The notes under the pieces: generated by a model | Database searches by the model: none | What the model was told of the DNA's origin: nothing | Seen by the model: the letters and a program-made list of their open reading frames with translations, nothing else | In this document: piece by piece, positions 1-17,740 of the stretch | How positions within the stretch are numbered: position 1 is the first letter of the stretch | Layout of the letters: each line of letters starts with the position of its first letter | Translations under genes and position numbers: made by a program | Source of the DNA: a virus | Strand: one strand, 5' to 3' | Length of the DNA stretch: 17,995 nucleotides | UHGV virus genome: UHGV-0163678

Positions 1-319
<319 letters not shown>

Positions 320-484
320 ATAGACCTCCTGATGAACTTTGGTGGTGTGGTAGGTGGGAGACCCATTTCGACCTGTTTCGGCCTACTTCAATTCGGCAAT
401 AGTCCCGCAGGCCTCGCCGCTTTACGTGCGACATATTCCCGTCCATGAACCCTTCACCACACCCCAAAGTTCACTTTGGTTATT

Positions 485-790: not shown

Positions 791-816
791 GAAAACCCGG
801 CGCTGAGGCCGGGTTG
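791..816 (-). terminator. Rho-independent terminator closing the cI operon
   Basis: 6-bp GC stem CCCGGC/GCCGGG (796..801 and 808..813) with a 6-nt loop; on the minus strand it is followed by TTTTCTTTG, 5 nt after the stop of the 123-aa ORF. Confidence 0.6.
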
Positions 817-820
817 TGTG

Positions 821-1192
821 TTACTTAAGAACGAGTCCGTTTAAGGCATCAAGGATTTTGGAAACATAACTTCCAAAAATGTAGGCGCAAAATGCGAACA
901 CGAAACTGACAACGACCGCAGATGCCTTGATGGTGATTTTTGCTGAGCTAATGCTTGTCTCAATACCTGACAGACGAGAATCTACAGATTTTATATCTGA
1001 CTTTACTTCAGCGAGATCGCGCTTGATGTATTCAACATCAGACTCTAGCTTTGCAACTCTAGCCTCAAGCATGTTACCTCCGCCGTTTCCTCCACCATGC
1101 CGTGAGTATGCATCATCAGTGGAATAGTGTCCAATTGGGCGAGATATGTTTTGATTTGGACGAAGCTGAGCAACCTTGTTATCTAAACTCAT
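821..1192 (-). CDS. Hypothetical tail-anchored membrane protein: Gly-rich N-terminal region, coiled coil, single C-terminal transmembrane helix; second gene of the rex-position cassette
   Basis: 123-aa ORF. AGGA about 10 nt upstream of the ATG; overlaps the upstream ORF by 14 nt. Sequence shows GGGNGGGN, a heptad-like segment LEARVAKLESDVEYIKRDLAEVKSDIKSVDSRL, and a hydrophobic stretch AVVVSFVFAFCAYIFGSYV. AT-rich by eye compared with cI. Confidence 0.55.
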   Translation of the reverse strand: MSLDNKVAQLRPNQNISRPIGHYSTDDAYSRHGGGNGGGNMLEARVAKLESDVEYIKRDLAEVKSDIKSVDSRLSGIETSISSAKITIKASAVVVSFVFAFCAYIFGSYVSKILDALNGLVLK

Positions 1193-1616
1193 CGCGAACT
1201 GATCCTGTTATCTTCACGTCAAAAAACGAACTTTTTACATCAATTACTTCGCCTTTATCAGGATTAACCAGTGATGCTCTAACTTCGAATATCCCAGGCT
1301 TGATAATTTTCACCCTTGGGAAGTTAATTCTCATAGAAGTTGATACGATGGTTTCTCCATCGTTGGCTTCTGCTACCGTAAAAAACTTATGGTTGGAGTA
1401 CAGTTTTGTGTCAATTGGTATCGGTATTTCTTGAGCATTGAAAACCTCAATGCCTATGGAATATTTTTTTGTAGCCTTAAGGCCGATAAAAAAAGCGCCA
1501 AATGATAGATCCACTTCATGGGAGTCTTTATCCATTTCATAGATAAGAACTGGAGTTACTGGGTTGCCTTCATCCATCGCAATCGGAATGATATAAGAAA
1601 TACGTTCTTTAATCAT
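1179..1616 (-). CDS. Hypothetical protein, first gene of the rex-position cassette downstream of cI
   Basis: 145-aa ORF starting 7 nt after the cI stop codon on the same strand, suggesting translational coupling. No motif I recognise. AT-rich by eye. Confidence 0.6.
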   Translation of the reverse strand: MIKERISYIIPIAMDEGNPVTPVLIYEMDKDSHEVDLSFGAFFIGLKATKKYSIGIEVFNAQEIPIPIDTKLYSNHKFFTVAEANDGETIVSTSMRINFPRVKIIKPGIFEVRASLVNPDKGEVIDVKSSFFDVKITGSVRDEFR

Positions 1617-1623
1617 TTACGTG

Positions 1624-2340
<717 letters not shown>

Positions 2341-2347
2341 TTAAATC

Positions 2348-2413
2348 TATCACCGCAAGGGATAAATATCTAACACCGTGCGTGTTGACTATTTTACCTC
2401 TAGCGGTGATAAT
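2348..2413. promoter_or_regulatory. Right operator OR3-OR2-OR1 with divergent pRM and pR promoters
   Basis: OR3 TATCACCGCAAGGGATA (2348..2364) and OR2 TAACACCGTGCGTGTTG (2371..2387) match lambda as recalled. OR1 (2395..2411) reads TACCTCTAGCGGTGATA, one base different from the canonical TACCTCTGGCGGTGATA. pR -35 TTGACT at 2384..2389 and -10 GATAAT at 2408..2413. Confidence 0.9.
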
Positions 2414-2428
2414 GGTTGCATGTACTAA

Positions 2429-2641
<213 letters not shown>

Positions 2642-2644
2642 CAC

Positions 2645-2690
2645 CGCTATTTTCACAATGGACATTCGTCCTACGTCGCTGACAAAGCGA
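2645..2690 (+). promoter_or_regulatory. nutR candidate: boxA-like CGCTATTTT plus boxB hairpin UCGCU-GACAA-AGCGA
   Basis: boxA-like 9-mer at 2645..2653. Perfect 5-bp stem with GACAA loop at 2676..2690, the same loop as the nutL candidate, directly downstream of cro. Confidence 0.5.
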
Positions 2691-2775
2691 GTCCCAAGAT
2701 ATCTGACCAACTAAGGCCATATGCGTTTCCACGCATACCTTTCAACTAACTATTCACTATTGGAAATCTTAAGAA

Positions 2776-3072
2776 ATGGAACGAACAAGTTACAGCAAAC
2801 TATCACAGCGTGACGTTGATCGCGCAGAAACTGATTTACTCATCAACCTGTCAACGCTTACCCAGCGCGGTCTGGCAAAGATGATTGGCTGTCATGAATC
2901 GAAGATAAGCAGAACGGACTGGAGATTTATTGCTTCGGTCTTGTGTGCTTTCGGAATGGCATCAGACATCAGTCCGATTAGCAGGGCTTTTAAGTATGCG
3001 CTTGATGAAATCACAAAGAAAAAATCCCCGGCCGCCACCGAGGATTTTAAGCAAATTGATATGCAATTCTGA
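2776..3072 (+). CDS. CII-like transcriptional activator (non-lambda allele)
   Basis: 98-aa ORF in the cII position. The C-terminal tail [17 protein letters not shown] parallels the lambda CII tail KKRPAATERSEQIQMEF as recalled; the rest is divergent. Confidence 0.65.
2786..2799 (-). promoter_or_regulatory. Candidate CII-binding site of a pRE-like promoter (TTGC-N6-TTGT on the minus strand)
   Basis: Direct tetranucleotide repeat with 6-bp spacing just inside the 5' end of the cII-like gene, oriented toward cro and cI, as at lambda pRE. Confidence 0.35.
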
Positions 3073-3104
3073 GGTCATTACTGGATCAATCCACAGGAGT
3101 AATT

Positions 3105-3251
3105 ATGACAAAACAACTCAGTCCTTACCAGGACAAAATTCACAAACACATACTACGTGATCGCTTCCTGTCCAGCTTCAAGCAGCCTGGTCGATTCCGG
3201 GCTGAGTTGGAAAAAGTGAAGCTGATGCAGAAGGAGAAAGGTCATGAGTAA
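3105..3251 (+). CDS. Small hypothetical ORF (48 aa) between cII-like and O-like genes
   Basis: ATG sits at the position homologous to the lambda O start, after the conserved GGTCATTACTGGATC junction. Reads [21 protein letters not shown]... and ends 8 nt inside the O-like gene. Below the ORF-track size cutoff; found by manual translation. Confidence 0.3.
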
Positions 3252-4104
3252 TCTTGCAACCGTAACACATTTAAGGCCTTCACAACGGCCTGTGGAGCGT
3301 CGTGTGGCAGAAGTTGAAGATGGTTATACCCGTCTTGCAAATGCCCTGTATGAAGAGCTTATCGGCGCAGATTTAACAAAAAATCAGAGTAAGGTTGCCC
3401 ACGCCATATGCCGTAAAACATACGGATACGGTAAAAAGATGGATCGCATCTCTGATAGTCAGTTAGCTCAAATTACCAGGCTGCCAAGACAGAAGGTAAA
3501 CAAGGCCAAGAATGAGCTTATCGCGATGAAGGTAATCCTTCGCGAAGGCCAGCAAATCGGGCCTAACAAGAACATCGAGGAATGGCAAATCGAAGGGTGT
3601 CACTACTCTGGTGATAATGTCACTGCATTGGTGACAAAAAGTGTCACCAAAACGGTGACAGCGCTGTCACCAAAACAGGGACACACAAAAGAAACTATTA
3701 CAAAAGAAAAAAGAAATAATAAAAACACTATGTCCGAAAGTGTTCGGACGGAGTGTGAAAAATCATCTGACCGTCACGAAGAAACCGACAAGGCATTCGA
3801 GGAAATATTCTGGTGTGCAGGCATGCGGAAAGCCGGGAAAAAAAACGCAGCTTCGGCATTCAGAACACAGTTCAGGGAATGGCGTAAAACTACCAGGGGT
3901 ACGGCAAGCGAGTTTGCCACGATGCTGGCAGAAGACATCGCATGCAGGAATGGTAAGCAGTTCGGATTCGACAGGTTGTTACCATCGAGCTACTTGAACG
4001 GTCAGCGCTGGAACGACGAAAAGCCAGAAACCATTCAACCACAATCCAAACCATCATCCGCAATCACCGTATCGAAAACTGGCTACGTGTTTTTCGACAG
4101 GTGA
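3244..4104 (+). CDS. Replication initiator, lambda O-like (origin-binding N-terminal domain; divergent C-terminal domain)
   Basis: 286 aa. N-terminal region aligns with lambda O as recalled (DGYxRLxNxL...GADLTKxQxKV...RKTYGxxKxMDRIxDSQL...GPNKNIxEW). Iterons and an AT-rich tract lie inside the gene, as at ori-lambda. Confidence 0.8.
3605..3730. repeat. Putative replication origin: dyad-symmetric iterons (GTGACA-N5-TGTCAC type) followed by an AT-rich tract
   Basis: Repeats such as GTGACAAAAAGTGTCAC (3631..3647), GGTGACAGCGCTGTCACC (3654..3671) and two GTCACCAAAAC units, followed by AAAAGAAACTATTACAAAAGAAAAAAGAAATAATAAAAAC. Same architecture as ori-lambda but a different iteron sequence. Confidence 0.6.
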
Positions 4105-4211
4105 ACCATGAAATCAAAAATCAAATCGCTACTGGTCGCTGGTTATAACCACGGCTGGTTAAGTATTTCGTTTGTCGATTTCTGGTTTAAAAATCTCAAT
4201 CTGAGGGAATC

Positions 4212-6092
4212 ATGAGGCCAAGTGAACTTAGCGACCTGCTTTGGGCGCAGGTTGACAGGGTGGCTCCGCACCTGTTGCCAAATGGCAAGAAAGAGGGGCA
4301 TGAGTGGGTTGCCGGTAACGTCAACGGTGACAAGGGAAACAGCCTTAAGGTCAACCTTAGCGGCAAGAAAAAATGGGCTGATTTCGCTGAGGGAGACGGC
4401 GGTGACATGCTTGATTTGTGGATGGCATGTCGTGGAATTAACCTGCATCAGGCTATGCAGGAAGCGAAAGCATTTCTCGGTATCAAGGATGACGATCACC
4501 ATTTCGATGCCAGACGTGAGAAGAAATTCTCCAGACCTGATCGCAAGAAAATCGCCCGCTACGTTACCAGAACAGAATCCCATCTTGAGTACCTGCAATC
4601 GCGTGGCATATCGCCAGAAGTCGTAAAGCGCTACGAGGTTGTCAGCGGCAAGGTGTGGAATGGAGAACGAGAACTGGATGCTCTGGTGCTTCCGTACAAA
4701 CGCGATGGTGAGTTGTTGCAGGTCAAGCGAATCAGCACTGAGCGCCCGGACGGGAAGAAAGTCATTATGGCAGAAGGTGATTGCGAACCTTGTCTGTTCG
4801 GATGGCAGGCTCTGGACGCTGGCGTGAGGGCGGTTGTGCTTTGCGAAGGCGAAATTGATTGTATGAGCTATGCGCAATACGGCATCTCGGCATTATCCGT
4901 GCCGTTTGGTGGAGGGAAAGGCGCTAAGCAACAGTGGATTGAGTTTGAGTATCACAACCTCGACAGGTTTGAGGAAATATTCATCTCGATGGACGTTGAT
5001 GATGTTGGTCGTGAAGCCGCAAGGGAAATCGCAAGCCGACTCGGTGAACATCGTTGCCGTCTTGTTACTCTGCCGTACAAAGACATCAACGAATGCCTGA
5101 TGAACGGTGTTACCGATGATGAAATCTGGCAGTACATCGGCACGGCATCCTACTTCGATCCTGAAGAACTCTACAGCGCGCGAGAGTTTTACCAGGACAC
5201 TATCAACGCTTTCTACGGCAAGCAGCAGTATCTGTTTAATCCACCGTGGGAATCTCTGGCAGATAAATTCCAGTTCCGTGAGGCCGAGTTGACGCTGGTC
5301 AATGGTGTGAACGGTCACGGAAAAACGGAGGTTGTCGGGCATATGGCACTTGAGGCAATGCGTCAGGGTGTGAAGACGTGCATCGCGTCACTTGAGCTGA
5401 AGCCAGGCATTCTCCTTAAGCGACTTACCCGTCAGGCGACGTGCTGCAAGATGCCGCCAGTGCTGGAAATTGACTCTGCATTTAAATTTTATGACGAAAG
5501 ACTTTGGGTGTTTGGCCTGACCGGAACGGCGAAAGCCGACAGGCTGATCGAAATATTCGACTACGCTCGCCGCCGATACGGCATCCAGTTATTCATCATC
5601 GACAGCCTGATGAAATGTGGCATAGGCGACGATGACTATAACGGGCAGAAGGCGTTTGTTGACTCGATTTGCGACTTCAAAAACAAAACAAACTCCCACG
5701 TCATTCTCGTTACTCACTCGCGAAAAGGAGACAGCGAAGAAAAACCAACCGGGAAAATGGACGTAAAAGGTTCTGGAGCGATAACAGACCTGACAGACAA
5801 CCTTTTCATCATCTGGCGTAACAAGGCTCGCGAGAGAGCGTTACAGAGAGTTCAGAGTGGTGAAAAGATGTCAGAGAAGGACGAACAGCTACTGGCATCT
5901 CCGGCATCTGTTTTGATGCTTGAAAAACAACGTAACGGCGAAGGTTGGGAAGGTGGTGTCCCGTTGTTCCTTGACGAGCAATCGCACCAGTTCCTGCAAC
6001 TTGAATCAGGATCGCCATATAGCTACATCGCCAATATGCCGAAATCGGAATATGACGAGGCGTGGCGACAGGAAAACGTGACGGAGTATTAA
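4212..6092 (+). CDS. Putative bifunctional primase-helicase (TOPRIM-like primase region with a C-terminal DnaB/RecA-like helicase domain)
   Basis: 626 aa. Acidic motifs typical of TOPRIM (VLCEGEIDCMSY, MDVDDVGREAA); Walker A-like GVNGHGKTEV and Walker B-like LFIIDSLMK. Occupies the position of lambda P, downstream of the O-like gene. Confidence 0.75.
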   Translation: MRPSELSDLLWAQVDRVAPHLLPNGKKEGHEWVAGNVNGDKGNSLKVNLSGKKKWADFAEGDGGDMLDLWMACRGINLHQAMQEAKAFLGIKDDDHHFDARREKKFSRPDRKKIARYVTRTESHLEYLQSRGISPEVVKRYEVVSGKVWNGERELDALVLPYKRDGELLQVKRISTERPDGKKVIMAEGDCEPCLFGWQALDAGVRAVVLCEGEIDCMSYAQYGISALSVPFGGGKGAKQQWIEFEYHNLDRFEEIFISMDVDDVGREAAREIASRLGEHRCRLVTLPYKDINECLMNGVTDDEIWQYIGTASYFDPEELYSAREFYQDTINAFYGKQQYLFNPPWESLADKFQFREAELTLVNGVNGHGKTEVVGHMALEAMRQGVKTCIASLELKPGILLKRLTRQATCCKMPPVLEIDSAFKFYDERLWVFGLTGTAKADRLIEIFDYARRRYGIQLFIIDSLMKCGIGDDDYNGQKAFVDSICDFKNKTNSHVILVTHSRKGDSEEKPTGKMDVKGSGAITDLTDNLFIIWRNKARERALQRVQSGEKMSEKDEQLLASPASVLMLEKQRNGEGWEGGVPLFLDEQSHQFLQLESGSPYSYIANMPKSEYDEAWRQENVTEY

Positions 6093-6658: not shown

Positions 6659-7036
6659 ATGGACGAATCAAGAAAGCAGTTTGAAGAAAGTTGGTTGCGA
6701 CGTGGAGGCGAATCATCAGACCTTATCCGTTACCCTGAAAATCACCATGAAATTGGCAGTGGTGATATTGGTGGTCAATACGTGATGGACGATGTTCAAG
6801 GCCACTGGCAAACGTGGCAGGCATCGCGAGCAGCTATTGAACTGGATATCGACTGGCCCGAATCGAATGACGACTTTTGGAAAGATGGTGAAGAAGGTGC
6901 TTATGCGATGGGGCATGAGGATGGGAAGGACAAAACGGTAATTGCAGTGATGAAAGCTATCAGAGCCGCTGGAATTAAAGAGAAGAATTTCGATGAAGCA
7001 AATATACATACTTCGCAACGAAGCAATCAGAAATAA
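6659..7036 (+). CDS. Hypothetical protein
   Basis: 125-aa acidic ORF; overlaps the ninB start by 44 nt. Confidence 0.45.
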   Translation: MDESRKQFEESWLRRGGESSDLIRYPENHHEIGSGDIGGQYVMDDVQGHWQTWQASRAAIELDIDWPESNDDFWKDGEEGAYAMGHEDGKDKTVIAVMKAIRAAGIKEKNFDEANIHTSQRSNQK

Positions 7037-7439
7037 CGCCATAGACGCAATACTCTCACTTCCGATCGACGACAGGTCACCTCACGAAGTCCACATTAAA
7101 GAACCAAAGCGGAGCAATCCTCAAAACCGCCTTATGTGGGCGTTATTGCAGGACGTATCACGTCAGGTGCTTTGGCATGGACAGAGACTTGCGCCGGAGG
7201 ACTGGAAAGACCTGTTCACTGCCCTGTGGCTTAAGACCAAAAAACTGGAGCAACGAAGTGTGTCTGGTATCGACGGTGGCGTAGTCATGCTTGGCGTGCG
7301 TACCAGCAAAATGCGAAAGGCCAGCATGACTGAGCTTATCGAAATCATGTTCTGGTTCGGCTCAGAGCGCAACGTGCGGTGGAGTGATGACTCCCGGCGA
7401 GAGTATGAATGGTCACAACGAAAAGGGAAGGCTGCATGA
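6993..7439 (+). CDS. ninB: NinB-like recombination protein
   Basis: 148 aa. Shares conserved blocks with lambda NinB as recalled (QNRxxWAxLxDVSRQVxWHG, FGxERxVxWSDE). First recognisable gene of the nin region. Confidence 0.75.
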   Translation: MKQIYILRNEAIRNNAIDAILSLPIDDRSPHEVHIKEPKRSNPQNRLMWALLQDVSRQVLWHGQRLAPEDWKDLFTALWLKTKKLEQRSVSGIDGGVVMLGVRTSKMRKASMTELIEIMFWFGSERNVRWSDDSRREYEWSQRKGKAA

Positions 7440-7963
7440 CTATCAAATCAAATACGCCAGCACACGACAAGGACTGCTGGCAAACGCCGCTTTGGCTTTT
7501 TGATGCACTGGATATTGAGTTTGGATTCTGGCTGGATTCGGCAGCGAGCGACAAAAATGCTCTGTGTGCTCACTGGCTAACTGAGGCCGACGACGCGCTC
7601 AATTCTGAGTGGGTAAGCCACGGTGCAATCTGGAATAACCCACCGTACAGCAATATCAGGCCGTGGGTGGAAAAAGCCGCTGAGCAGTGCATACAACAGC
7701 GACAGACGGTAGTGATGCTTGTGCCAGAGGATATGTCAGTCGGATGGTTCAGCAAGGCTCTGGAGAGTGTCGACGAAGTTCGCATTATCACTGATGGACG
7801 GATTAATTTTATCGAACCATCGACAGGGCTGGAGAAGAAGGGAAACAGCAAAGGCTCCATGCTGCTGATTTGGCGACCGTTCATCAGTCCTCGACGGATG
7901 TTTACTACCGTATCCAAAGCGGCATTGATGGCGATCGGGCAGGGCGTCAGGAGGGCGGCATGA
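7436..7963 (+). CDS. Phage-type DNA N6-adenine methyltransferase (Dam-like), orphan
   Basis: NPPY catalytic motif ([10 protein letters not shown]). ATGA overlap with the ninB stop; an alternative in-frame start lies at 7409. No adjacent restriction endonuclease gene. Confidence 0.75.
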
Positions 7964-8136
7964 GGCGACAGCGACGAAGTTTCACCGACATCATCTGCGA
8001 AAACTGCAAATACCTTCCAACGAAACGCTCCAGAAATAAACGCAAGCCAATTCCAAAAGAATCTGACGTAAAAACCTTCAACTACACGGCTCACCTGTGG
8101 GATATCCGGTGGCTAAGACATCGTGCGAGGAAATGA
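7960..8136 (+). CDS. ninE: NinE
   Basis: 58 aa, [58 protein letters not shown], near-identical to lambda NinE as recalled. ATGA overlap with the Dam stop. Confidence 0.7.
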
Positions 8137-8498
8137 CAATGGATTATTCACAGTTAAGTGATTTTGAAATTAACGTGGCGGTATTCGAAGCCATTCATAA
8201 CGGATCACCGGATTACAAAGAAGGTGAGAATGGCGATATGGTGTTTGTCTCATTTGATGGAGACATTGTAAACGGAGACGCAGTTGAAGTAGAAGTTGAG
8301 CGCGGATCATTTAACCCATGCGTAAACCCAGCAGACGCATGGCCGATTATTGAAAAATACAGGATTAGCATTATCAATCTCGATGAAGACGAGTGGGGTG
8401 CACGCGGTGTGGCCTACTGTAAATCTAAGCGAGCTATACATGAAAATCCCCTCCGCGCCGCCATGATTGTCTTTCTCATGATGCAGAGAATCCAATAA
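8133..8498 (+). CDS. Hypothetical nin-region protein
   Basis: ATGA overlap with the ninE stop; about 121 aa from ATG 8133. The ORF-track start at 8097 is an upstream alternative. Confidence 0.5.
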
Positions 8499-8674
8499 TG
8501 CTTAGTCCATCCCAATCCCTTCAATACCAGAAAGAAAGCGTCGAGCGAGCTTTAACGTGCGCTAACTGCGGTCAGAAGCTGCATGTGCTGGAAGTTCACG
8601 TGTGCTCAGATTGCTGCGCAGAACTGATGAGCGATCCGAATAGCTCAATGTACGAGGAAGAAGACGATGGCTAA
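8498..8674 (+). CDS. ninF: NinF
   Basis: 58 aa, [36 protein letters not shown]..., matching lambda NinF as recalled. Found by manual translation, below the ORF-track cutoff. Confidence 0.7.
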   Translation: MLSPSQSLQYQKESVERALTCANCGQKLHVLEVHVCSDCCAELMSDPNSSMYEEEDDG

Positions 8675-9233
8675 ACCAGCGCGAAGACGATGTAACCGTA
8701 AAAGAGAAGATTTAACTGTTAAAAGGATATTTGAGTTACTAAGTTTCGATAAATCCACCGGGGTATTTAGATGGAAAGTTCCCACTCAGGGAAGGATATC
8801 ATTAAATAGTATTGCTGGAACTTTTGATTCCAACGGTTATTCAATGATCATGATAGATGGGCGTAGATATAAAACTCACGTCTTAGTTTTTTACATAACT
8901 CATAATCGTTGGCCTGCTGGTCAAATTGACCACGTTAATGGAATTAGGACCGACAATAGGCCAGAAAATTTAAGAGAATGCCTGCCAATAGAAAATTCAA
9001 GAAATATAAGGATCCGAAAGAATAGCAAATCAGGTTGCAGAGGAGTTACTTGGCACAAACGACAGAAAAAATGGAATGTTAGGCTAGGTTTCCATGGCAA
9101 GAGTAAACACTTCGGATGCTTTGATGATCTGGAGTTAGCGGTACTAGTTGCTGAAGAAGCCCGAGATAAGTATTACGGTGATTTTTCCGGCAACGAAAGG
9201 AGCACTTATGCGAATCTATCGAAGGAAATGTAA
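8667..9233 (+). CDS. HNH homing endonuclease with AP2-like DNA-binding domain
   Basis: HNH signature ([17 protein letters not shown]) and an AP2-like segment ([33 protein letters not shown]). Markedly AT-rich by eye. Its N-terminus MAKPARRRC mimics the lambda NinG N-terminus as recalled. Confidence 0.8.
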
Positions 9234-9810
9234 ATGTTGCAATGAATGGTTTATACCAAAATATCAAAATCAATATTGGTGTAATGAGATTTGTGGAACC
9301 AAGATAGCACTCGAACGACGAAGCAAAGAACGCGAAAAAGCGGAAAAGGAAGTAGAGAAGAAACGACGACGAGAGGAGCAGAAACAGAAAGATAAACTTA
9401 AGATTCGAAAACTCGCCTTAAAGCCCCGCAGTTACTGGATTAAACAAGCCCAACAAGCCGTAAACGCCTTCATCAGAGAAAGAGACCGCGACTTACCATG
9501 TATCTCGTGCGGAACGCTCACGTCTGCTCAGTGGGATGCCGGGCATTACCGGACAACTGCTGCGGCACCTCAACTCCGATTTGATGAACGCAATATTCAC
9601 AAGCAATGCGTGGTGTGCAACCAGCATAAAAGCGGAAATCTCGTTCCGTATCGCGTCGAACTGATTAACCGGATCGGGCAGGAAGCAGTAGACGAAATCG
9701 AATCAAACCATAACCGCCATCGCTGGACTGTCGAAGAGTGCAAGGCGATCAAGGCAGAGTACCAACAGAAACTCAAAGACCTGCGAAATAGCAGAAGTGA
9801 GGCCGCATGA
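9208..9810 (+). CDS. ninG: NinG (Rap-like) with a re-built 5' end
   Basis: From about residue 30 onward, near-identical to lambda NinG as recalled ([18 protein letters not shown] ... [11 protein letters not shown]). New ATG at 9208 with an AAGGAG Shine-Dalgarno at 9198..9203; the first ~30 codons are recoded and AT-rich. Confidence 0.75.
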
Positions 9811-10013
9811 CGTTCTCAGTAAAAACCATTCCAGACATGCTCGTTGAAGCATACGGAAACCAGACAGAAGTAGCACGCAGACTGAAATGTAGTCGTGGTA
9901 CGGTCAGAAAATACGTTGATGATAAAGACGGGAAAATGCACGCCATCGTCAACGACGTTCTCATGGTTCATCGCGGATGGAGTGAAAGAGATGCGCTATT
10001 ACGAAAGAATTGA
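9807..10013 (+). CDS. ninH: NinH
   Basis: 68 aa, [49 protein letters not shown]..., matching lambda NinH as recalled. Confidence 0.8.
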
Positions 10014-10662
10014 TGGCAGCAAATACCGAAATATTTGGGTAGTTGGCGATCTGCACGGATGCTACACGAACCTGATGAAAAAACTGGAGACGATAGGATT
10101 CGACACCAAAAAAGACCTGCTTATCTCGGTTGGCGATTTGGTCGATCGCGGTACAGAGAACGTCGAATGCCTGGAATTAATCACATTCCCCTGGTTCAGA
10201 GCTGTACGTGGAAACCATGAGCAAATGATGATTGATGGCTTATCAGAGCGCGGAAACGTCAATCACTGGATGCTTAATGGCGGTGGCTGGTTCTTTAATC
10301 TCGATTACGACAAAGAAATTCTGGCTAAAGCTCTTGCCCATAAAGCAGATGAACTTCCGTTAATCATCGAACTGGTGAGCAAAGATAAAAAATATGTCAT
10401 CTGCCACGCCGATTATCCTTGTGACGAATACGAGTTTGGAAAGCCAGTTGATCATCAGCAGGTAATCTGGAACCGAGAACGAATCAGCAACTCACAAGAC
10501 GGGATCGTGAAAGAAATTAAAGGCGCGGACACGTTCATCTTTGGTCATACGCCAGCAGTGAAACCGCTCAAATTTGCCAACCAGATGTATATCGATACCG
10601 GCGCAGTGTTCTGCGGAAAGCTCACATTGATTCAGGTACAGGGAGAAGGCGCGTGGGCATAA
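9991..10662 (+). CDS. ninI: NinI Ser/Thr protein phosphatase (lambda phosphatase family)
   Basis: Metallophosphatase motifs GDLHG, GDLVDRG, GNHE. Start taken as ATG 9991 (MRYYERIDG...), overlapping the ninH end as in lambda. Confidence 0.85.
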
Positions 10663-11141
10663 GAGAACTAAACCTCACCAAAGAACAGCATGAGTGGCTG
10701 AATGGCTGGCTTGAACTGTGGGGCGCATGGGTTTATTCAGGTCGTCTGGAAAAGCGCATGAGCAGCGTAATAGCGAAGTTCATGGAGAGCGTAGAGCCGG
10801 GAAGAGTTATGACAAGGCCAATGTGTAATGATGATGATGGAATGTTGATTTCTCAGGTCGTCGATTCCGTCATGTACATTGACAAGAAAGCCTTTGGCAT
10901 CCTCCTCAGCTACTACGCCCATGGATCTTCCAAGCACGCCATTGCATCTTACTATCATCGCGTCGCAAGACCTCGCAAGATGTTATGCCGGGGCGGCGGG
11001 CGCATTCAAAAACCATCGCTCGCAACCTGTCGTCGGGAAGTTGACGAAATCCTCAATGCCTCGTTGTTTATGATTTACCCGGTTCTGGATAGTGCGTTTA
11101 AAAACCGGAAACGTGTAGAGAAAATTAAACATGTAGCATAG
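10653..11141 (+). CDS. Q-family late-gene antiterminator (non-lambda allele)
   Basis: 162-aa ORF between ninI and the lysis cassette, the position of Q. No similarity to lambda Q as recalled, so the assignment is positional. A T-tract terminator follows. Confidence 0.5.
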
Positions 11142-11188
11142 AACGTGTTGACATCATTGAGCAAATGAGCAACACTATTCGCATAAGC

Positions 11189-11231
11189 TGCCGTTAGTGA
11201 CTCTTAAGTTGCAACGGTGGCTTTTTTATTT
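11189..11231 (+). terminator. Candidate tR'-like terminator downstream of Q
   Basis: Imperfect hairpin (CCGTT...AACGG) followed by TTTTTTATTTG. The sequence just after it (GCACAACAGGTAAGAGCATTGA) matches the region just after lambda tR' as I recall it. Confidence 0.4.
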
Positions 11232-11386
11232 GCACAACAGGTAAGAGCATTGAACCCGCAGACCTCGCGGAATTGGTGAAAGGTGCCGCGCAGTGCTCTT
11301 ATCGTTGTGGTGAAGCTCAATGGCGAGCTAGCAGATAGGCGATAGTGAAAATACTAGTCATGTAGCTGACCGCCGCGCGTACTGCA

Positions 11387-11432
11387 ATCGGCAGCGCACC
11401 GATGGAAGCCGGTTCGATTCCGGTCGCCACAA
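11387..11432 (+). other. tRNA-like 3' fragment (anticodon-arm-like hairpin, T-arm GCCGG-TTCGATT-CCGGT, acceptor 3' strand)
   Basis: Canonical T-loop motif GGTTCGATTCC with a 5-bp stem. No 5' acceptor strand or D-arm can be paired within a normal tRNA length. Confidence 0.3.
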
Positions 11433-11553
11433 TCCAAACTGAGCCGTAGCCACTGGCTATCCTGAACTCATCAGTGATAGTTATGCTGCGGCCTTCTTTT
11501 TTCCCCTTCCCAATATAAGAACTACGCAATCCGTTACTGGCGGAGGCGTTGCT

Positions 11554-11769
11554 ATGAAATCAATGGACAAAATCTCAACTGGCATTGCCTACGGAACATC
11601 CGCAGGCAGTGCGGGATACTGGTTTTTACAGTGGCTTGATCAGGTCAGTCCGTCACAGTGGGCTGCGATTGGTGTACTGGTGAGTCTGGTTCTGGGCTTC
11701 CTGACTTATCTGACAAATCTGTACTTCAAAATCAGAGAAGACAGAAGAAAGGCTGCGAGAGGTGAATAA
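11554..11769 (+). CDS. Pinholin, phage 21 S-type (class II holin)
   Basis: 71 aa, [42 protein letters not shown]..., near-identical to the phage 21 S holin as recalled. Dual-start motif (Met1 and Met4). Confidence 0.85.
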
Positions 11770-12266
11770 TGCCTCCATCATTACGAAAAGCCGTTGCTGC
11801 TGCTATTGGTGGCGGAGCAATTGCTATAGCATCAGTGTTAATCACTGGTCCAGGTGGTAACGATGGTCTGGAAGGTGTCAGCTACATACCATACAAAGAT
11901 ATTGTTGGTGTATGGACTGTATGTCACGGGCATACAGGAAAAGACATCATGCTCGGTAAAACGTATACCAAAGCAGAATGCAAAGCCCTCCTGAATAAAG
12001 ACCTTGCCACGGTCGCCAGACAAATTAACCCGTACATCAAAGTCGATATACCGGAAACAACGCGCGGCGCTCTTTACTCGTTCGTCTACAACGTGGGGGC
12101 TGGCAATTTCAGAACATCGACGCTTCTTCGCAAAATAAACCAGGGCGATATCAAAGGCGCATGTGACCAGCTACGTCGCTGGACATACGCTGGCGGTAAG
12201 CAATGGAAAGGGCTGATGACCCGTCGTGATATTGAGCGTGAAGTCTGTTTGTGGGGGCAGCAATGA
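11769..12266 (+). CDS. SAR endolysin (lysozyme with N-terminal signal-anchor-release domain), phage 21 R-type
   Basis: 165 aa. Gly/Ala-rich N-terminal hydrophobic segment ([20 protein letters not shown]) followed by a T4-lysozyme-like catalytic region. TAATG overlap with the holin stop. Confidence 0.85.
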
Positions 12267-12700
12267 GCAGAGTAACCGCGATTATCTCCGCTCTGGTTAT
12301 CTGCATCATCGTCTGCCTGTCATGGGCTGTTAATCATTACCGTGATAACGCCATGACCTACAAAGAGCAGCGCGATAAAGCCACATCCATCATCGCTGAT
12401 ATGCAGAAGCGTCAACGTGATGTAGCAGAACTCGACGCCAGATACACAAAGGAGCTTGCTGATGCTAACGCGACTATCGAAAGTCTCCGTGCTGATGTTT
12501 CTGCTGGGCGTAAGCGCCTGCAAGTCGCCGCCACCTGTGCAAAGTCAACGACCGGAGCCAGCAGCATGGGCGATGGAGAAAGCCCAAGACTTACAGCAGA
12601 TGCTGAACTCAATTATTACCGTCTCAGAAGTGGAATCGACAGGATAACCGCGCAGGTTAACTACCTGCAGGAGTACATCAGGACGCAATGCCTGAAATAA
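12263..12700 (+). CDS. Rz-like inner-membrane spanin
   Basis: N-terminal transmembrane helix and coiled-coil periplasmic domain. ATGA overlap with the endolysin stop; start taken as ATG 12263 rather than the ORF-track start at 12251. Confidence 0.75.
12456..12647 (+). CDS. Rz1-like outer-membrane lipoprotein spanin, embedded in Rz in the +1 frame
   Basis: 63-aa ORF wholly inside Rz. Lipobox-like LLGVSAC followed by a proline-rich mature region ([13 protein letters not shown]). Confidence 0.6.
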
Positions 12701-12712
12701 CAACTAAGTGAG

Positions 12713-13141
12713 ATGAATATGGCGACTGAACCAAAAGCTGGTCGCCCCTCTGATTATATGCCGGAGGTGGCTGACGATATCTGCTCGTTGCTTTCTTCTG
12801 GCGAAAGTTTGCTGAAAGTATGTAAGCGTCCTGGTATGCCGGATAAGTCCACTGTTTTCCGCTGGCTGGCAAAGCATGAGGATTTTCGCGACAAGTACGC
12901 GAAGGCAACTGAGGCACGAGCTGATTCTATTTTCGAAGAGATATTCGAAATTGCTGACAATGCGATTCCAGATGCTGCTGAGGTGGCAAAGGCAAGACTT
13001 CGCGTTGATACCCGCAAATGGGCGCTGGCCCGAATGAATCCCCGTAAGTATGGCGACAAGGTAACTAACGAACTTGTCGGCAAAGACGGCGGCGCAATCC
13101 AGATTGAAACATCACCGATGAGCACTCTATTCGGAAAATGA
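12713..13141 (+). CDS. Terminase small subunit
   Basis: 142-aa ORF immediately upstream of, and overlapping, the large terminase gene, directly after the lysis cassette. Confidence 0.65.
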   Translation: MNMATEPKAGRPSDYMPEVADDICSLLSSGESLLKVCKRPGMPDKSTVFRWLAKHEDFRDKYAKATEARADSIFEEIFEIADNAIPDAAEVAKARLRVDTRKWALARMNPRKYGDKVTNELVGKDGGAIQIETSPMSTLFGK

Positions 13142-14553
13142 CCTCGATTAATCCTATCTTTGAACCGTTCATTGAGGCGCATCGCTACAAAGTCGCCAAA
13201 GGCGGTCGAGGTAGCGGTAAATCATGGGCAATTGCGAGGCTGCTTGTTGAGGCGGCGCGTCGGCAGCCTGTGCGTATTCTCTGCGCTCGTGAACTGCAAA
13301 ACAGTATCAGCGATTCGGTAATCCGGTTGCTTGAAGACACCATAGAGCGGGAAGGGTATTCGGCTGAGTTTGAAATTCAGCGTTCAATGATCCGTCATCT
13401 CGGAACGAATGCTGAATTCATGTTCTACGGCATAAAAAACAACCCTACGAAGATTAAATCGCTCGAAGGCATTGATATCTGCTGGGTGGAAGAAGCGGAA
13501 GCGGTAACAAAGGAATCGTGGGATATCCTGATACCAACCATCCGCAAGCCGTTTTCCGAAATATGGGTGAGCTTTAACCCGAAGAACATACTCGACGATA
13601 CCTATCAGCGATTCGTTGTAAATCCTCCCGATGATATTTGTCTGCTGACGGTGAACTACACCGACAATCCGCATTTTCCTGAAGTTCTCCGTCTGGAGAT
13701 GGAAGAGTGTAAACGCAGAAACCCGACACTGTATCGTCACATCTGGCTTGGTGAGCCAGTAAGCGCAAGTGATATGGCAATCATCAAACGTGAATGGCTT
13801 GAAGCCGCAACCGATGCGCACAAGAAACTCGGATGGAAAGCGAAAGGCGCTGTTGTCTCTGCGCATGACCCATCAGATACAGGGCCAGATGCTAAAGGTT
13901 ATGCATCGCGTCACGGTTCGGTAGTTAAGCGCATTGCCGAAGGTCTGCTGATGGATATCAACGAGGGTGCTGACTGGGCAACTTCGCTGGCGATTGAAGA
14001 CGGCGCTGACCACTACCTGTGGGATGGTGATGGTGTTGGTGCTGGGCTACGCAGACAGACAACGGAAGCGTTCTCCGGCAAGAAAATCACCGCCACGATG
14101 TTCAAGGGCAGCGAATCGCCATTCGATGAAGATGCACCATATCAGGCCGGAGCATGGGCCGATGAAGTCGTACAGGGCGACAACGTTCGCACTATTGGTG
14201 ATGTGTTCCGCAATAAGCGAGCACAATTCTATTACGCGCTGGCTGACAGGCTGTATCTGACATATCGGGCGGTTGTTCACGGTGAGTATGCAGACCCCGA
14301 CGACATGCTGAGTTTCGACAAAGAAGCGATAGGCGAGAAGATGCTGGAGAAGCTGTTTGCAGAACTGACGCAGATTCAGCGCAAATTCAATAACAACGGG
14401 AAGCTTGAGCTAATGACTAAGGTCGAAATGAAGCAGAAGCTCGGTATTCCATCTCCTAACCTGGCTGATGCGCTGATGATGTGTATGCATTGCCCGGAGT
14501 CGGCTGCGCAACCCGACTATTCCAGTTACTCAATTCCTTGTGGTGTAGGTTGA
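13138..14553 (+). CDS. Terminase large subunit (ATPase and nuclease)
   Basis: 471 aa. Walker A motif near the N-terminus (AKGGRGSGKS), acidic Walker B-like WVEEAEA, and a C-terminal domain with conserved acidic residues. Confidence 0.9.
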   Translation: MTSINPIFEPFIEAHRYKVAKGGRGSGKSWAIARLLVEAARRQPVRILCARELQNSISDSVIRLLEDTIEREGYSAEFEIQRSMIRHLGTNAEFMFYGIKNNPTKIKSLEGIDICWVEEAEAVTKESWDILIPTIRKPFSEIWVSFNPKNILDDTYQRFVVNPPDDICLLTVNYTDNPHFPEVLRLEMEECKRRNPTLYRHIWLGEPVSASDMAIIKREWLEAATDAHKKLGWKAKGAVVSAHDPSDTGPDAKGYASRHGSVVKRIAEGLLMDINEGADWATSLAIEDGADHYLWDGDGVGAGLRRQTTEAFSGKKITATMFKGSESPFDEDAPYQAGAWADEVVQGDNVRTIGDVFRNKRAQFYYALADRLYLTYRAVVHGEYADPDDMLSFDKEAIGEKMLEKLFAELTQIQRKFNNNGKLELMTKVEMKQKLGIPSPNLADALMMCMHCPESAAQPDYSSYSIPCGVG

Positions 14554-14554
14554 T

Positions 14555-16753
14555 ATGGCAGAAAAAAAGATGACTGACTGGCATCGCAAGGTGCTGTGCA
14601 ACTTTGATAATGCCTGGTCAGCAACGCAGGATATGCGTGAGCAGATTATTGAGGCTCAACGTTTCGTCCGGGTGTCCGGCGCACAGTGGGAAGGCAGCAC
14701 AAACGCTGGTTACTCATTTGATGAAGGCAGGTTTGAGCATTACCCGCGCTTTGAACTGAATAAGATTGCCCGTGAATGTGATCGCATCATTGGCGAGTAT
14801 CGACAGAATCGCATCAGCGTTAAATTCAGGCCGAAGGATGACAAGGCATCGGAAGCGTTAGCCGAAAAGATGAACGGCAAATTCCGCGCTGATTATCAGG
14901 AAACATCCGGTGGCGAAGCGTGTGATAACGCATTTGATGATGCTGTAACGGGCGGATTCGGTTGTTTCCGCATGTGTGCTGATTACGAAGATGAAATGGA
15001 TCCGAGTAACGAGCAACGCCGTATAAGCCTTCTCCCTGTTTACGACCCAGCGACATGCGTCTTCTTTGATCAGGACAGCAAGCAATATGACCGCTCTGAT
15101 GCTATGTGGGCTATGGAAATGTTCTCCATGACGCCTAAAGCGTTCGAGGCTGAATACCCTGATTCCATCGCGGCAAGCCTTTCTCGTGATGACACTGGTA
15201 CTCAGTATGACTGGTCAACGCCTGACGCCATCTATGTTGGACGCTACTACGAAGTCCGCATAGAGAAGGTGAAGCTCACAGCATGGCGTAACCCTGTCAG
15301 CGGAGAAACGGCAATCTATGATGAAGAGCAAATCAAAGATATTGTCGACGAGCTGACCGATGGTGCATTCGAACTGATTGGCGAGCGAACGGTGAAGAAA
15401 CGCCGAGTTTATTGCGGTCTTCTGTCTGGCGCTGAATGGCTGGAAGAACCGAAGCGTATTCCGGGCGAACATATTCCTCTCATCCCGGTATATGGGCGTC
15501 GTTCATTTGTTGATAATCAGGAGCGAATCGAAGGCCACGCAGCAAAAGCGATGGATGCACAGCGTCTTGAGAACCTGATGGTTTCCATGATTGCAGATAA
15601 CGCCACTCAGGCTGGCGGTGATGGCATTCCTATCGTGGATGTTGATTTCATTCCCGGCCCATTAATGAACCACTGGGCAGAGAGGAATAAGAAAAGACCT
15701 GCAGTTCTTCCTATGACCAGCAAGAAGGACAAAAACGGAACGGTCATTTCAGAGGCTCAGGTTGCTGGCTGGACACCTCCGACACAAATGCCTCCAGCTC
15801 TTGCAGGGCTATTGCAGTACACCGGAACGGCTATTCAGCAAATTACAGGTGCGTCGCAGCTTGAGAACATGCCGAGCAACGTCGCTACCGATACCGTTGA
15901 TAGCATCTTTAACCGGATGGACACGCAGTCCTATATCTACATGGACAACATGGCTAAATCCATGCGCCGTGCTGGCGTCGTGTGGCTTTCTATGGCTCGT
16001 GAAGTCTATGGCAGCGATACGCCAATGCGCATCGTTAATGAGGATGACAGCGATGACGTGGCGCTGATGACTGGTGAAGTGGTTGACCGTCAGACAGGGC
16101 AGGTTATCGCGCTTAACGACCTTTCGCAGGGTAACTATGAAGTGACTGTCGATGTCGGTCAGTCGTTCGCTACTCGCCGTGATGCAACGGTTAAGTCGTT
16201 ACTTTCCATGCTGGCACTTATCCCGCCAGGAACGCCGAAGCATGACCTTGTATCGTCGATGATTCTCGACAATATGGACGGCGAAGGGATGGACGACCTG
16301 AAAGAATACAACCGCAATCAGTTGCTTCTGTCTGGCGTTATCAAGCCGAGAACGCCTGAAGAACAGCAAATGGTTGAGCAGGCGAAACAACAACAGGCCA
16401 GTCAGCCAGATCCGGCTATGGTTGCAGCGCAAGGTCAGCTTCTTGCAGGTCAGGCTGAATTGCAGAAAGCGCAGAACGAACAGGCAGCCATTCAGGTTAA
16501 AGCATTCCAGGCACAGACTGATGCTCAGGTTGCAGCGGCAAACGTTGTGAAAATCCTCGCATCTGCCGATAGCCAGCAGAAATCTGATATCCGCGAGGCT
16601 CTGAAACTGCTCGGACAGTTCCAGCAACAGCAAGGAGACAATGCCCGTGCTGATGCAGAGCTTGTCCTGAAAAGTCAGGCACAGGGTCATGCGCAGCGCA
16701 TGGACATCAGCAGCATCCTGCAAAAATCAACTCAGCAACAACCACAGCAGTAA
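14555..16753 (+). CDS. Portal protein (P22/Sf6-like, with C-terminal Gln-rich helical extension)
   Basis: 732-aa ORF immediately after the large terminase. Size and the glutamine-rich alpha-helical C-terminal ~120 residues resemble P22-type portals. Confidence 0.8.
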   Translation: MAEKKMTDWHRKVLCNFDNAWSATQDMREQIIEAQRFVRVSGAQWEGSTNAGYSFDEGRFEHYPRFELNKIARECDRIIGEYRQNRISVKFRPKDDKASEALAEKMNGKFRADYQETSGGEACDNAFDDAVTGGFGCFRMCADYEDEMDPSNEQRRISLLPVYDPATCVFFDQDSKQYDRSDAMWAMEMFSMTPKAFEAEYPDSIAASLSRDDTGTQYDWSTPDAIYVGRYYEVRIEKVKLTAWRNPVSGETAIYDEEQIKDIVDELTDGAFELIGERTVKKRRVYCGLLSGAEWLEEPKRIPGEHIPLIPVYGRRSFVDNQERIEGHAAKAMDAQRLENLMVSMIADNATQAGGDGIPIVDVDFIPGPLMNHWAERNKKRPAVLPMTSKKDKNGTVISEAQVAGWTPPTQMPPALAGLLQYTGTAIQQITGASQLENMPSNVATDTVDSIFNRMDTQSYIYMDNMAKSMRRAGVVWLSMAREVYGSDTPMRIVNEDDSDDVALMTGEVVDRQTGQVIALNDLSQGNYEVTVDVGQSFATRRDATVKSLLSMLALIPPGTPKHDLVSSMILDNMDGEGMDDLKEYNRNQLLLSGVIKPRTPEEQQMVEQAKQQQASQPDPAMVAAQGQLLAGQAELQKAQNEQAAIQVKAFQAQTDAQVAAANVVKILASADSQQKSDIREALKLLGQFQQQQGDNARADAELVLKSQAQGHAQRMDISSILQKSTQQQPQQ

Positions 16754-16843
16754 TTAACCCATAACGTGCAATGGCTGTCTTTATGAGGCCTGGCACCCTA
16801 TTGCCTTCCGATGGGCTGAACATCGAGTAAACAGGGGTAACAA

Positions 16844-17740
16844 ATGGACCAGATGGCAGAAAACACACCAGAAGTTGAAATCGAAACCGACGCGTCAGAG
16901 CAGATTCCTGATGATGTCGAACTGGCTGAAGAAGTCGAAACAGCAGATGGCAGTGAGTCCTCAGGAAATGATGCAGAGGAAGCTACTGACACTGATGACG
17001 ACGAATCAGAACAGGAATTCTACTTTGGTGACGAAAAGCTGGATTCGCCAACCAGCGAAGATGGCGCAGAGCATGGACTGGTAAAACACTTGCGCAAGAC
17101 GATTAAAGAGAAAGACCGTGAGCTGAAAGAGCTGATGCGTCAGTCTCAGAAACCCGTCGAGCAGCAGCCGGTAATCACTCAACCACCGCGAATGCCAAAA
17201 CTGGATGATGAGGACATCGGTTTCGATGAAGAAATCTATCAGCAACGCATGGCTAAGTGGGCAGAGGATAACGGCAAATACCAGGAGCAAGTACGAGAGC
17301 GGAAACGAGAGGAAGAGGCGCGTACCGCAACGCTTCAGCAGAAAGCAGCCAATTACATGCATAGAGTAAAAGCACTGAAAGTGGCTGGTTACCAGGATGC
17401 AGAGCAGGCTGTACGCGAAGATGTTCCTGTTCACATTCAGGACATGATCCTTCTTGAGTCAGAGAAGCCGGAAATCGTTGTTCTGGCACTCGGTCGCAAC
17501 GCTGAACTGCGCAAGCAACTGGCAGAAGCTACCAACCCCGTAGCAATTGGTCGTCTGCTGGAACGTATCGAATCGAAGGCCAGAATCATGCCAAAAGCAA
17601 AAACCACGGCAGCCACAACCCCGACAGTTAAGGGGAGCAACGGCGCAGTAATCAATAACCTCGACAAACTTCTCGAAAAAGCGCGCGACACCGGTGATTA
17701 CACCGAATACCGGGCGGCGAAGAACAAAGCTAAAAAATAA
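16844..17740 (+). CDS. Scaffolding protein
   Basis: 298 aa, highly acidic N-terminal region, extended charged coiled-coil-like segments and a basic C-terminus, between the portal and coat genes. Confidence 0.65.
   Translation: MDQMAENTPEVEIETDASEQIPDDVELAEEVETADGSESSGNDAEEATDTDDDESEQEFYFGDEKLDSPTSEDGAEHGLVKHLRKTIKEKDRELKELMRQSQKPVEQQPVITQPPRMPKLDDEDIGFDEEIYQQRMAKWAEDNGKYQEQVRERKREEEARTATLQQKAANYMHRVKALKVAGYQDAEQAVREDVPVHIQDMILLESEKPEIVVLALGRNAELRKQLAEATNPVAIGRLLERIESKARIMPKAKTTAATTPTVKGSNGAVINNLDKLLEKARDTGDYTEYRAAKNKAKK

Follow-up and report, generated by a model that had tools for sequence, protein, structure and literature searches.

The window analyzed here, a 17,995-nucleotide stretch of the virus genome UHGV-0163678 whose positions serve as coordinates throughout, contains a lambda-type immunity region in which two small genes, referred to here as A and B, occupy the place of rexA and rexB. 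Specifically, comparison with lambda by BLASTN reveals that positions 816–1627 stand in place of rexA, rexB and the 112-nt spacer between cI and rexA. In this comparison, homology to lambda is confined to two flanking blocks: a left block (529–815, 89% identity) that includes the operators OL1-3 and the terminator downstream of rexB, and a right block (1628–2651, 97.7% identity) that covers cI, OR and cro. The lambda-like character of these flanks, described in a first-pass annotation of this DNA, is thus confirmed. Because the homology stops at 1628 and at 815, the substitution is exact, extending from the cI stop codon to the terminator.

Both genes lie on the minus strand, as does cI (1624–2337, encoding a 237-amino acid repressor of the lambda immunity type), which opens the operon to which they belong. 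Gene A (1179–1616; 145 amino acids; phrog_5893, with no Pfam assignment) begins with an ATG located 7 nt past the cI stop codon, as compared with the 112 nt that separate cI from rexA in lambda. Gene B (821–1192; 123 amino acids in its long form; phrog_6136) overlaps A by 14 nt, and its stop codon (821–823) lies 5 nt before an intrinsic terminator (tIMM; 794–815, minus strand), made up of a GC-rich hairpin of 8 bp and the T-run behind it; this terminator is shared with lambda and forms the left junction of the substitution. These dimensions are as first reported. There is no terminator in the interval between cI and A, and the lambda terminator has been kept; hence, the placement of the cassette inside the cI transcription unit, previously proposed from its position, is supported by the sequence. 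Promoter-like matches within the cassette, where an internal promoter resembling pLIT might lie, are no commoner than in shuffled sequences (6 vs 4.5). From this anatomy and the precedent of lambda, a cI–A–B transcript would start at pRM and end at the lambda terminator. Both genes are AT-rich, as had been noted (37% GC in A and 43% in B, with 48% in the window as a whole); however, lambda rexA and rexB are equally AT-rich (40–42%), and base composition is therefore uninformative as to whether the cassette is foreign.

The product of gene A is predicted with high confidence to be a generic, cytoplasmic, immunoglobulin (Ig)-like β-sandwich: its AlphaFold2 (AF2) model contains eight strands and has a predicted local distance difference test (pLDDT) score of 89. 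No catalytic motif was found in A, and a sequence search of the PDB with the A profile returned no match. When the model (m138f9ae5056a) was compared with BFVD, the closest viral structures were uncharacterised proteins of 134–142 amino acids with TM-scores of ~0.65–0.70, among them a protein of phage A403 of the Gram-positive Anoxybacillus. We propose that A is a specificity or regulatory subunit, for reasons that emerge from its pattern of variation relative to B.

Protein B has a very different architecture. In the AF2 model, residues 1–40 are disordered and residues 41–121 form a single continuous helix. Along the sequence, this corresponds to a predicted disordered N-terminal tail (residues 1–32; 1097–1192), a glycine run, GGGNGGG (residues 33–39; 1076–1096), a coiled-coil helix (residues 41–89; 926–1072), a lone transmembrane helix of 21 residues identified by hydropathy (residues 90–110; 863–925), and a conserved 13-residue C-terminal tail, SKILDALNGLVLK, beyond the membrane segment (824–862), all on the minus strand. 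The coiled coil and single C-terminal transmembrane helix named in the first-pass annotation are thus both present, but the glycine-rich segment that it placed at the N-terminus lies further in, at residues 33–39. The start of the helix, comprising the first ~25 residues of the coil (RVAKLESDVEYIKRD), varies hardly at all within the family. A sequence search of the PDB with the B profile retrieved coiled-coil proteins only, for example Lpp and tail needle.

The glycine run coincides with what appears to be an internal ribosome-binding site. Its DNA contains a Shine-Dalgarno-like GGAGG (1077–1081, minus strand) located 4 nt upstream of an in-frame ATG (1072–1070), from which a predicted short form of 83 amino acids, here called B′, would be translated (821–1072, minus strand). 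This arrangement, which was absent from the earlier annotation, is a family-wide feature. Of the 59 distinct B genes, 56 have an in-frame ATG at the first coiled-coil residue and the other 3 have GTG; one gene of the GTG group starts at that very codon. A GGAGG lies 4–9 nt upstream of the internal start in 77% of B genes, and a GGAG or GAGG in 84%. Although the peptide encoded by the glycine run varies (GGGN, GGDD, PTGGDG, SSGGDR), the nucleotides GGA-GGN are kept. Furthermore, the mean energy of the duplex with the anti-Shine-Dalgarno sequence is −10.4 kcal/mol in the B genes, as compared with −8.9 kcal/mol in synonymous resamples drawn from the genes' own codon usage and −7.7 kcal/mol in those drawn from E. 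coli glycine usage, with 0 of 300 resamples reaching the observed value; the pattern holds in all B subtypes. On the basis of this conserved signature of start codon and GGAGG, the gene probably yields two products, the 123-amino acid long form and the 83-amino acid short form. In-frame internal starts with their own ribosome-binding sites, yielding forms that differ by an N-terminal extension, are familiar from lambda S107/S105 and from P22 sieB/esc, and the two forms predicted for B resemble these dual-start genes in that respect. B has no sequence relation to S or SieB, however, and its extension of ~40 residues is apparently a docking site for A.

It is the short form that invites comparison with XhlA, the name that NCBI attaches to proteins of the B family (“hemolysin XhlA”). 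Residue 2 of B′ aligns with residue 1 of an XhlA from a Geobacillus phage (34% identity over 44 amino acids; BLASTP), and comparison of the B family with four XhlA sequences by hhalign gives a probability of 79.8% (E 1.5e-5) over 22 coiled-coil columns, falling to 27% against SPP1 gp24.1 alone. Of 64 B-family members, 40 match the Pfam XhlA family (PF10779) at E≤0.01, the best with an E of 8e-6. XhlA and SPP1 gp24.1 are one-transmembrane holin partners of Bacillus phages that do no harm by themselves but kill the cell in combination with a two-transmembrane holin, and SPP1 gene 24.1 resembles the B gene in containing an internal AUG in frame (PMC6316719). Like B′, gp24.1 is 83 amino acids long, and both B′ and these proteins have an N-terminal coiled coil and a C-terminal transmembrane segment. 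There are also obvious differences: true xhlA genes adjoin holin and endolysin or amidase genes, whereas the B gene sits in the immunity region; the hosts of B are Gram-negative; and B, which is coupled to gene A, has an additional N-terminal tail that is specific to its partner. Membership of B in the XhlA family is thus unproven, but the likeness of B′ to XhlA in its possible mode of action is a real lead.

Resemblance to a holin partner raises the question of whether the cassette serves the life cycle of its own phage, either as an XhlA-like accessory that tunes the timing of lysis after induction or as a modulator of the switch between lysogeny and induction. The likeness of the short form to XhlA holin partners is consistent with the former, and for the latter it is relevant that genes in this slot, namely lambda rexA (Thomason 2021; Adams 2024) and 434 hex, are reported to affect the switch. 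However, the window contains a separate lysis region, with a lysozyme gene at 11769–12266 and an open reading frame (ORF) at 12251–12700, both far from the cassette; by the precedent of lambda, the cI operon is off once lytic growth begins; and neither A nor B has a DNA-binding or RecA-related feature. We therefore regard a role in the phage's own development as unlikely.

The XhlA connection also touches gene A. In the Bacillus prophage PBSX, xepA precedes xhlA, such that a β-sandwich gene stands ahead of an XhlA-type gene, much as in the cassette. XepA and YomS are 4+4 β-sandwiches for which an action on membranes has been suggested (PMC6834076). As homologues of A these two proteins were rejected, as they lie outside the top PDB matches and give no sequence signal, and the comparison is one of analogy only. 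A Geobacillus protein whose gene lies two positions ahead of xhlA also has no sequence similarity to A. The order of xepA and xhlA in PBSX, taken with the match of A to a protein of the Anoxybacillus phage A403, nonetheless hints at an older partnership between β-sandwich and XhlA-type proteins.

Neither gene is an isolated curiosity. Sequence and profile searches identified 75 clusters related to A and 73 related to B; together with the existence of PHROG families and the conserved synteny of the two genes, this argues that A and B are not chance ORFs. All named members of the A-like and B-like families are from Enterobacterales, and every A-like protein is unannotated; phrog_5893 and phrog_6136 are likewise PHROG entries without an assigned function. 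An exhaustive hidden Markov model search for the A type recovered 119 representatives at 50% identity, ~100 of which are full-length proteins of 131–161 amino acids without a Pfam domain, the others being Ig-repeat surface proteins. Neither A nor B has a match at threshold in Pfam or NCBIfam. Without a single change, the 796 bp of the cassette recur in E. coli O127:H6 E2348/69; among 5,426 complete E. coli genomes, 16 contain this identical sequence, with the genes annotated as “hypothetical” and once as “hemolysin XhlA family”.

The occurrence of the identical cassette in the pathogen E2348/69, together with the layout of a small overlapping two-gene operon whose second gene looks membrane-active, is compatible with a module unrelated to phage exclusion: an addiction system like those of toxins and antitoxins, with B as toxin and A as antidote, or a moron acting at the envelope in host fitness, stress or virulence. 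However, neither protein matches a known toxin or antitoxin family, no recognisable toxin or antitoxin domain having been found in them with Pfam, NCBIfam or PADLOC. In addition, strict association with repressors, extreme diversification of the partner and swappable folds (see below) are more typical of phage sensing. We consider such a function quite improbable.

The first-pass annotation presented the cassette as undescribed, and this is true only in part. In the Salmonella P22-like phage epsilon34, a homologue of A (gp45, 74% identical) and a related B (gp44) are encoded directly after a different repressor, and these genes 44 and 45 were reported in 2008 as occupying the rexA/rexB position, without function or database matches (Villafane et al. 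2008; PMC2629481). The interval between cI and N is itself a published hotspot of mosaicism that houses RexAB and BstA (PMC8585504, citing Degnan 2007), and in other lambda-immunity phages we find this slot filled by HicAB (mEp234/HK106), gp48/49 (HK97) or an NYN protein (ev099). With these earlier sightings and the “hemolysin XhlA” labels acknowledged, the claim holds in the sense that we found no study of the pair. The prophage defences Tai, Tab and Tha were entertained as identities for the cassette and dropped, in the case of Tai because its paper concerns another locus. There is thus precedent for the slot, for the pairing of a soluble partner with a membrane protein under control of the repressor promoter, and for the position of this pair; what is new is the definition of the family, its tracking of repressors across the CI and Mnt classes, the modularity of partner and tail relative to effector, the internal start and the link to XhlA. 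Family context and the resemblance of the short form to XhlA were likewise absent from the earlier annotation.

The phage that carries the cassette is a mosaic, as seen from positions 1–330 (minus strand), 3244–6092 and 6993–17740: a lambda immunity block is set into a genome that is otherwise like that of P22, with a P22 portal, Terminase_3, a lysozyme and Q. Within the immunity block, cI differs from that of lambda by two substitutions, T3A and K71N. The right operator with pRM and pR (OR3-OR2-OR1, 2348–2411) has OR3 and OR2 identical to lambda, and OR1 (2395–2411) has a single G-to-A change at 2402 (TACCTCTAGCGGTGATA). Cro (2438–2641) carries the substitution K39N and ends in KKQLHK where the lambda protein ends in KKTTA. 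On the other side of the cassette, OL1 (570–586), OL2 (594–610) and OL3 (614–630) are identical to lambda, with a pL-like promoter at 596–568; left of OL, an ORF (1–330, minus strand) that runs off the start of the window has no DNA match to lambda and is N-like by eye only. The replication genes encode an O-like protein and a toprim/AAA protein resembling epsilon34 gp52, and past them the early-right region includes NinB, a Dam methylase, an HNH protein and a metallophosphatase. The E2348/69 prophage (L002; NC_011601, 2611339–2630134) shares the identical cI-A-B block and has instead a replication protein with a DnaB-type helicase, indicating that the immunity block has moved between backbones.

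It is informative to examine where modules of this kind lie in other genomes. We surveyed 78 IMG/VR loci with a B gene, representing 46 distinct B proteins. For 30 of the 46, the module follows a gene for a CI-type repressor, from any of seven sequence clusters, and for a further 6 it follows a gene for an Arc/Mnt-type repressor, such that 36 of 46 distinct B proteins are encoded directly downstream of a lysogeny repressor; in 3 cases the upstream gene encodes DUF6246 or a neighbouring unknown protein, and in 7 it is ambiguous or the contig ends. The order repressor, A-like, B-like was also found in six of seven bacterial contigs, with repressors ranging from a 128-amino acid protein with only a helix-turn-helix (HTH) domain to a 241-amino acid HTH+S24 protein. 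The module thus tracks lysogeny-maintenance repressors of unrelated classes, which is the strongest, although indirect, argument that it is produced in lysogens.

A few loci depart from the common layout. In a Dryocola sp. contig (L011), an extra ORF of 131 amino acids with an N-terminal hydrophobic segment (3576–3971) stands between an S24 repressor and A, possibly representing a three-gene version of the cassette. Another locus (L086, IMG/VR, 2354–3842) has a B-like gene of 173 amino acids after an S24 repressor, with a 271-nt gap, no called partner and GTG replacing the internal Met codon.

The partner of B is not always A-like. For 10 of the 46 distinct B proteins, a different kind of partner is encoded upstream, either a Zn-ribbon-like protein with a CxxC...CxxC pattern (~103–132 amino acids) or a protein of ~90 amino acids. 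Neither has a match in Pfam or in PADLOC-DB v2.0.0. The ~90-amino acid protein, recognizable by the motif SFGYSSFG, is often encoded behind an Mnt/Arc-type repressor; the IMG/VR loci with one or the other partner are L042–L047, L057–L060, L095 and L097, and L053 and L089–L096.

Comparison of the pairs themselves reveals which parts of the module belong together. Among 43 distinct A/B pairs, clustering at 45% identity gives 16 A types and only 5 types of the coil/transmembrane half of B. Identity between A proteins correlates with identity between B tails (Mantel r=0.43, p=5e-4), and none of the pairs is discordant in the sense of combining A identity below 35% with tail identity above 60%, or the reverse. 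In contrast, A and the coil/transmembrane half are nearly uncoupled (r=0.10), with 263 discordant pairs, of which 240 have A below 35% and coil/transmembrane above 60% and 23 are the reverse. In the type represented by L114, A (at 99% identity) and its tail are retained, but the coil/transmembrane half joined to them is unrelated. At the DNA level, homology between cassettes breaks at the glycine run (window ~1076–1099). The tail is probably translated, since it is under purifying selection (the ratio of nonsynonymous to synonymous substitution rates, dN/dS, is 0.23–0.78 in ten comparisons). The covariation of A with the tail, the free swapping of coil/transmembrane halves and the alternative partners together indicate that the B core is the constant part of the module, and the partner and tail its variable part. 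The division into sensor and effector that had been suggested from position and architecture fits these comparative data, in that a module following many repressor types, with a diverse partner and a near-invariant B core, has the design expected of a specificity subunit and a membrane effector.

The distribution of this variation also bears on the possibility that the cassette excludes superinfecting phages without killing the cell, with B in the inner membrane blocking genome entry or the injection channel and A acting as a stabiliser or assembly factor. HK97 gp15 and P22 SieA exclude phages by blocking entry or injection, and the cassette shares with such systems a position from which it would be expressed in lysogens. 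B is small, belongs to the inner membrane and ends in a conserved tail past its transmembrane segment, and the slot next to P22 mnt is one in which, by annotation, orf59a and then the exclusion gene sieA lie downstream of mnt. However, the predicted cytoplasmic part takes in ~90 of the 123 residues of B and the whole of A, leaving 0–13 residues beyond the membrane, and the diversity sits in the cytoplasmic partner and tail and not in the membrane or periplasmic part. A block of this kind therefore seems to us a doubtful explanation.

Two systems that protect lysogens from comparable positions offer the closest comparisons. The cassette shares with RexAB an identical slot and transcription unit, from the cI stop codon to tIMM, a context that would be expressed in lysogens, an AT-rich composition typical of morons, and the succession of a soluble first protein and a membrane-associated second one. 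RexB is a multi-pass membrane protein, and RexAB shuts out T4 rII and other phages with loss of membrane potential. In sequence and fold, the two pairs are unrelated, in agreement with the earlier annotation: hhalign gives probabilities of 0.1% for A with RexA and 0.5% for B with RexB. RexA has 279 amino acids and a structure reported to be RdgC-like, as compared with the 145-residue all-β sandwich of A, and the 144-residue RexB contrasts with the one transmembrane helix and long coiled coil of B. BstA is likewise encoded directly downstream of a prophage repressor, presumably co-transcribed with it, in lambdoid and P22-like prophages of Enterobacterales; however, that system consists of one large protein that associates with DNA, and its self-immunity element is DNA-encoded, whereas the cassette specifies two proteins, without sequence similarity to BstA, that appear to be directed at the membrane.

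Considering these observations together, we tentatively favor the interpretation that the cassette is an abortive-infection-type exclusion module, linked to the repressor operon and expressed in lysogens, and we would give this nearly, although not quite, an even chance of being correct. In such a scheme, A would be a cytoplasmic Ig-like β-sandwich, and B would be a tail-anchored protein with a disordered tail of ~32 residues, a glycine hinge, a coiled coil of ~50 residues, one transmembrane helix and a short C-terminal tail. The internal GGAGG and ATG would also give the tail-less, 83-amino acid form collinear with XhlA. The strict covariation of A and tail suggests that A recognises the tail of B, and it might thereby restrain the long form or couple it to a trigger derived from the infecting phage. 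By analogy with holin partners, infection could then lead B to oligomerise through its coiled coil and damage the inner membrane, possibly together with the invader's holin. The ratio of long to short form may set the threshold for this response or confer self-immunity, as in dual-start holins.

Several observations weigh against this interpretation. The literature, searched by accession, PHROG identifier, XhlA together with repressor, and hotspot, yielded no study of the A/B pair, and among the defence systems of PADLOC-DB v2.0.0, A has no match and B matches only coiled-coil noise (CorA-like, E 0.004). Some members of the family lie outside repressor operons: in three IMG/VR loci (L058–L060, ~2190–3750), a Zn-ribbon partner and B directly follow a DUF6246 protein and not a repressor, and in two Providencia rettgeri contigs (L013/L014, 2523–3369), an A-like protein of 161 amino acids and a B-like protein of 122 are encoded beside an Arc-family gene, adjoining the genes for the tail and baseplate in a prophage of the myovirus type, a slot unlike the interval between cI and N. 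The covariation of A and tail could be due to physical linkage alone, because the coding regions overlap and the conserved DNA of the glycine run is the only good joint for recombination. The p-value from synonymous resampling is optimistic, since the B sequences are related and were treated as independent. Lastly, the score of B against PF10779 is 19.3 bits, under the gathering cut-off of 34.7, and the match between B and XhlA is restricted to a low-complexity coiled coil. What probability the interpretations discussed here leave over falls to something else entirely.

A more specific scenario, which we offer as a speculation with a rather small chance of being right, is that B is an XhlA-type holin accessory that has been relocated out of a lysis cassette, into repressor operons, to serve as a sentinel. 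In this scenario, B′ would be harmless alone in the lysogen and lethal once the holin of a superinfecting phage begins to build up, causing premature lysis; the tail of the long form, with A, the Zn-ribbon protein or another partner, would set which phages trigger the response and would protect the resident prophage. If this were true, the glycine run would serve at once as hinge, as internal ribosome-binding site and as the joint at which sensor and effector recombine.

How RexAB passes from sensor to effector firing is still poorly understood after 60 years (PMC8585504). In the cassette described here, that slot is filled by a far simpler effector, which has one transmembrane helix plus a coiled coil, and by a partner that is small and well folded, and dozens of natural A/B chimeras already map which parts belong together. 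One of its carriers, E2348/69, is the reference strain of enteropathogenic E. coli (EPEC) and has the identical cassette. Should the cassette prove to exclude phages, it would constitute a new defence family specific to the prophages of Enterobacterales, would tie holin-accessory proteins to immunity, and would provide a tractable model for the coupling of sensor to effector and for self-immunity through alternative translation starts.

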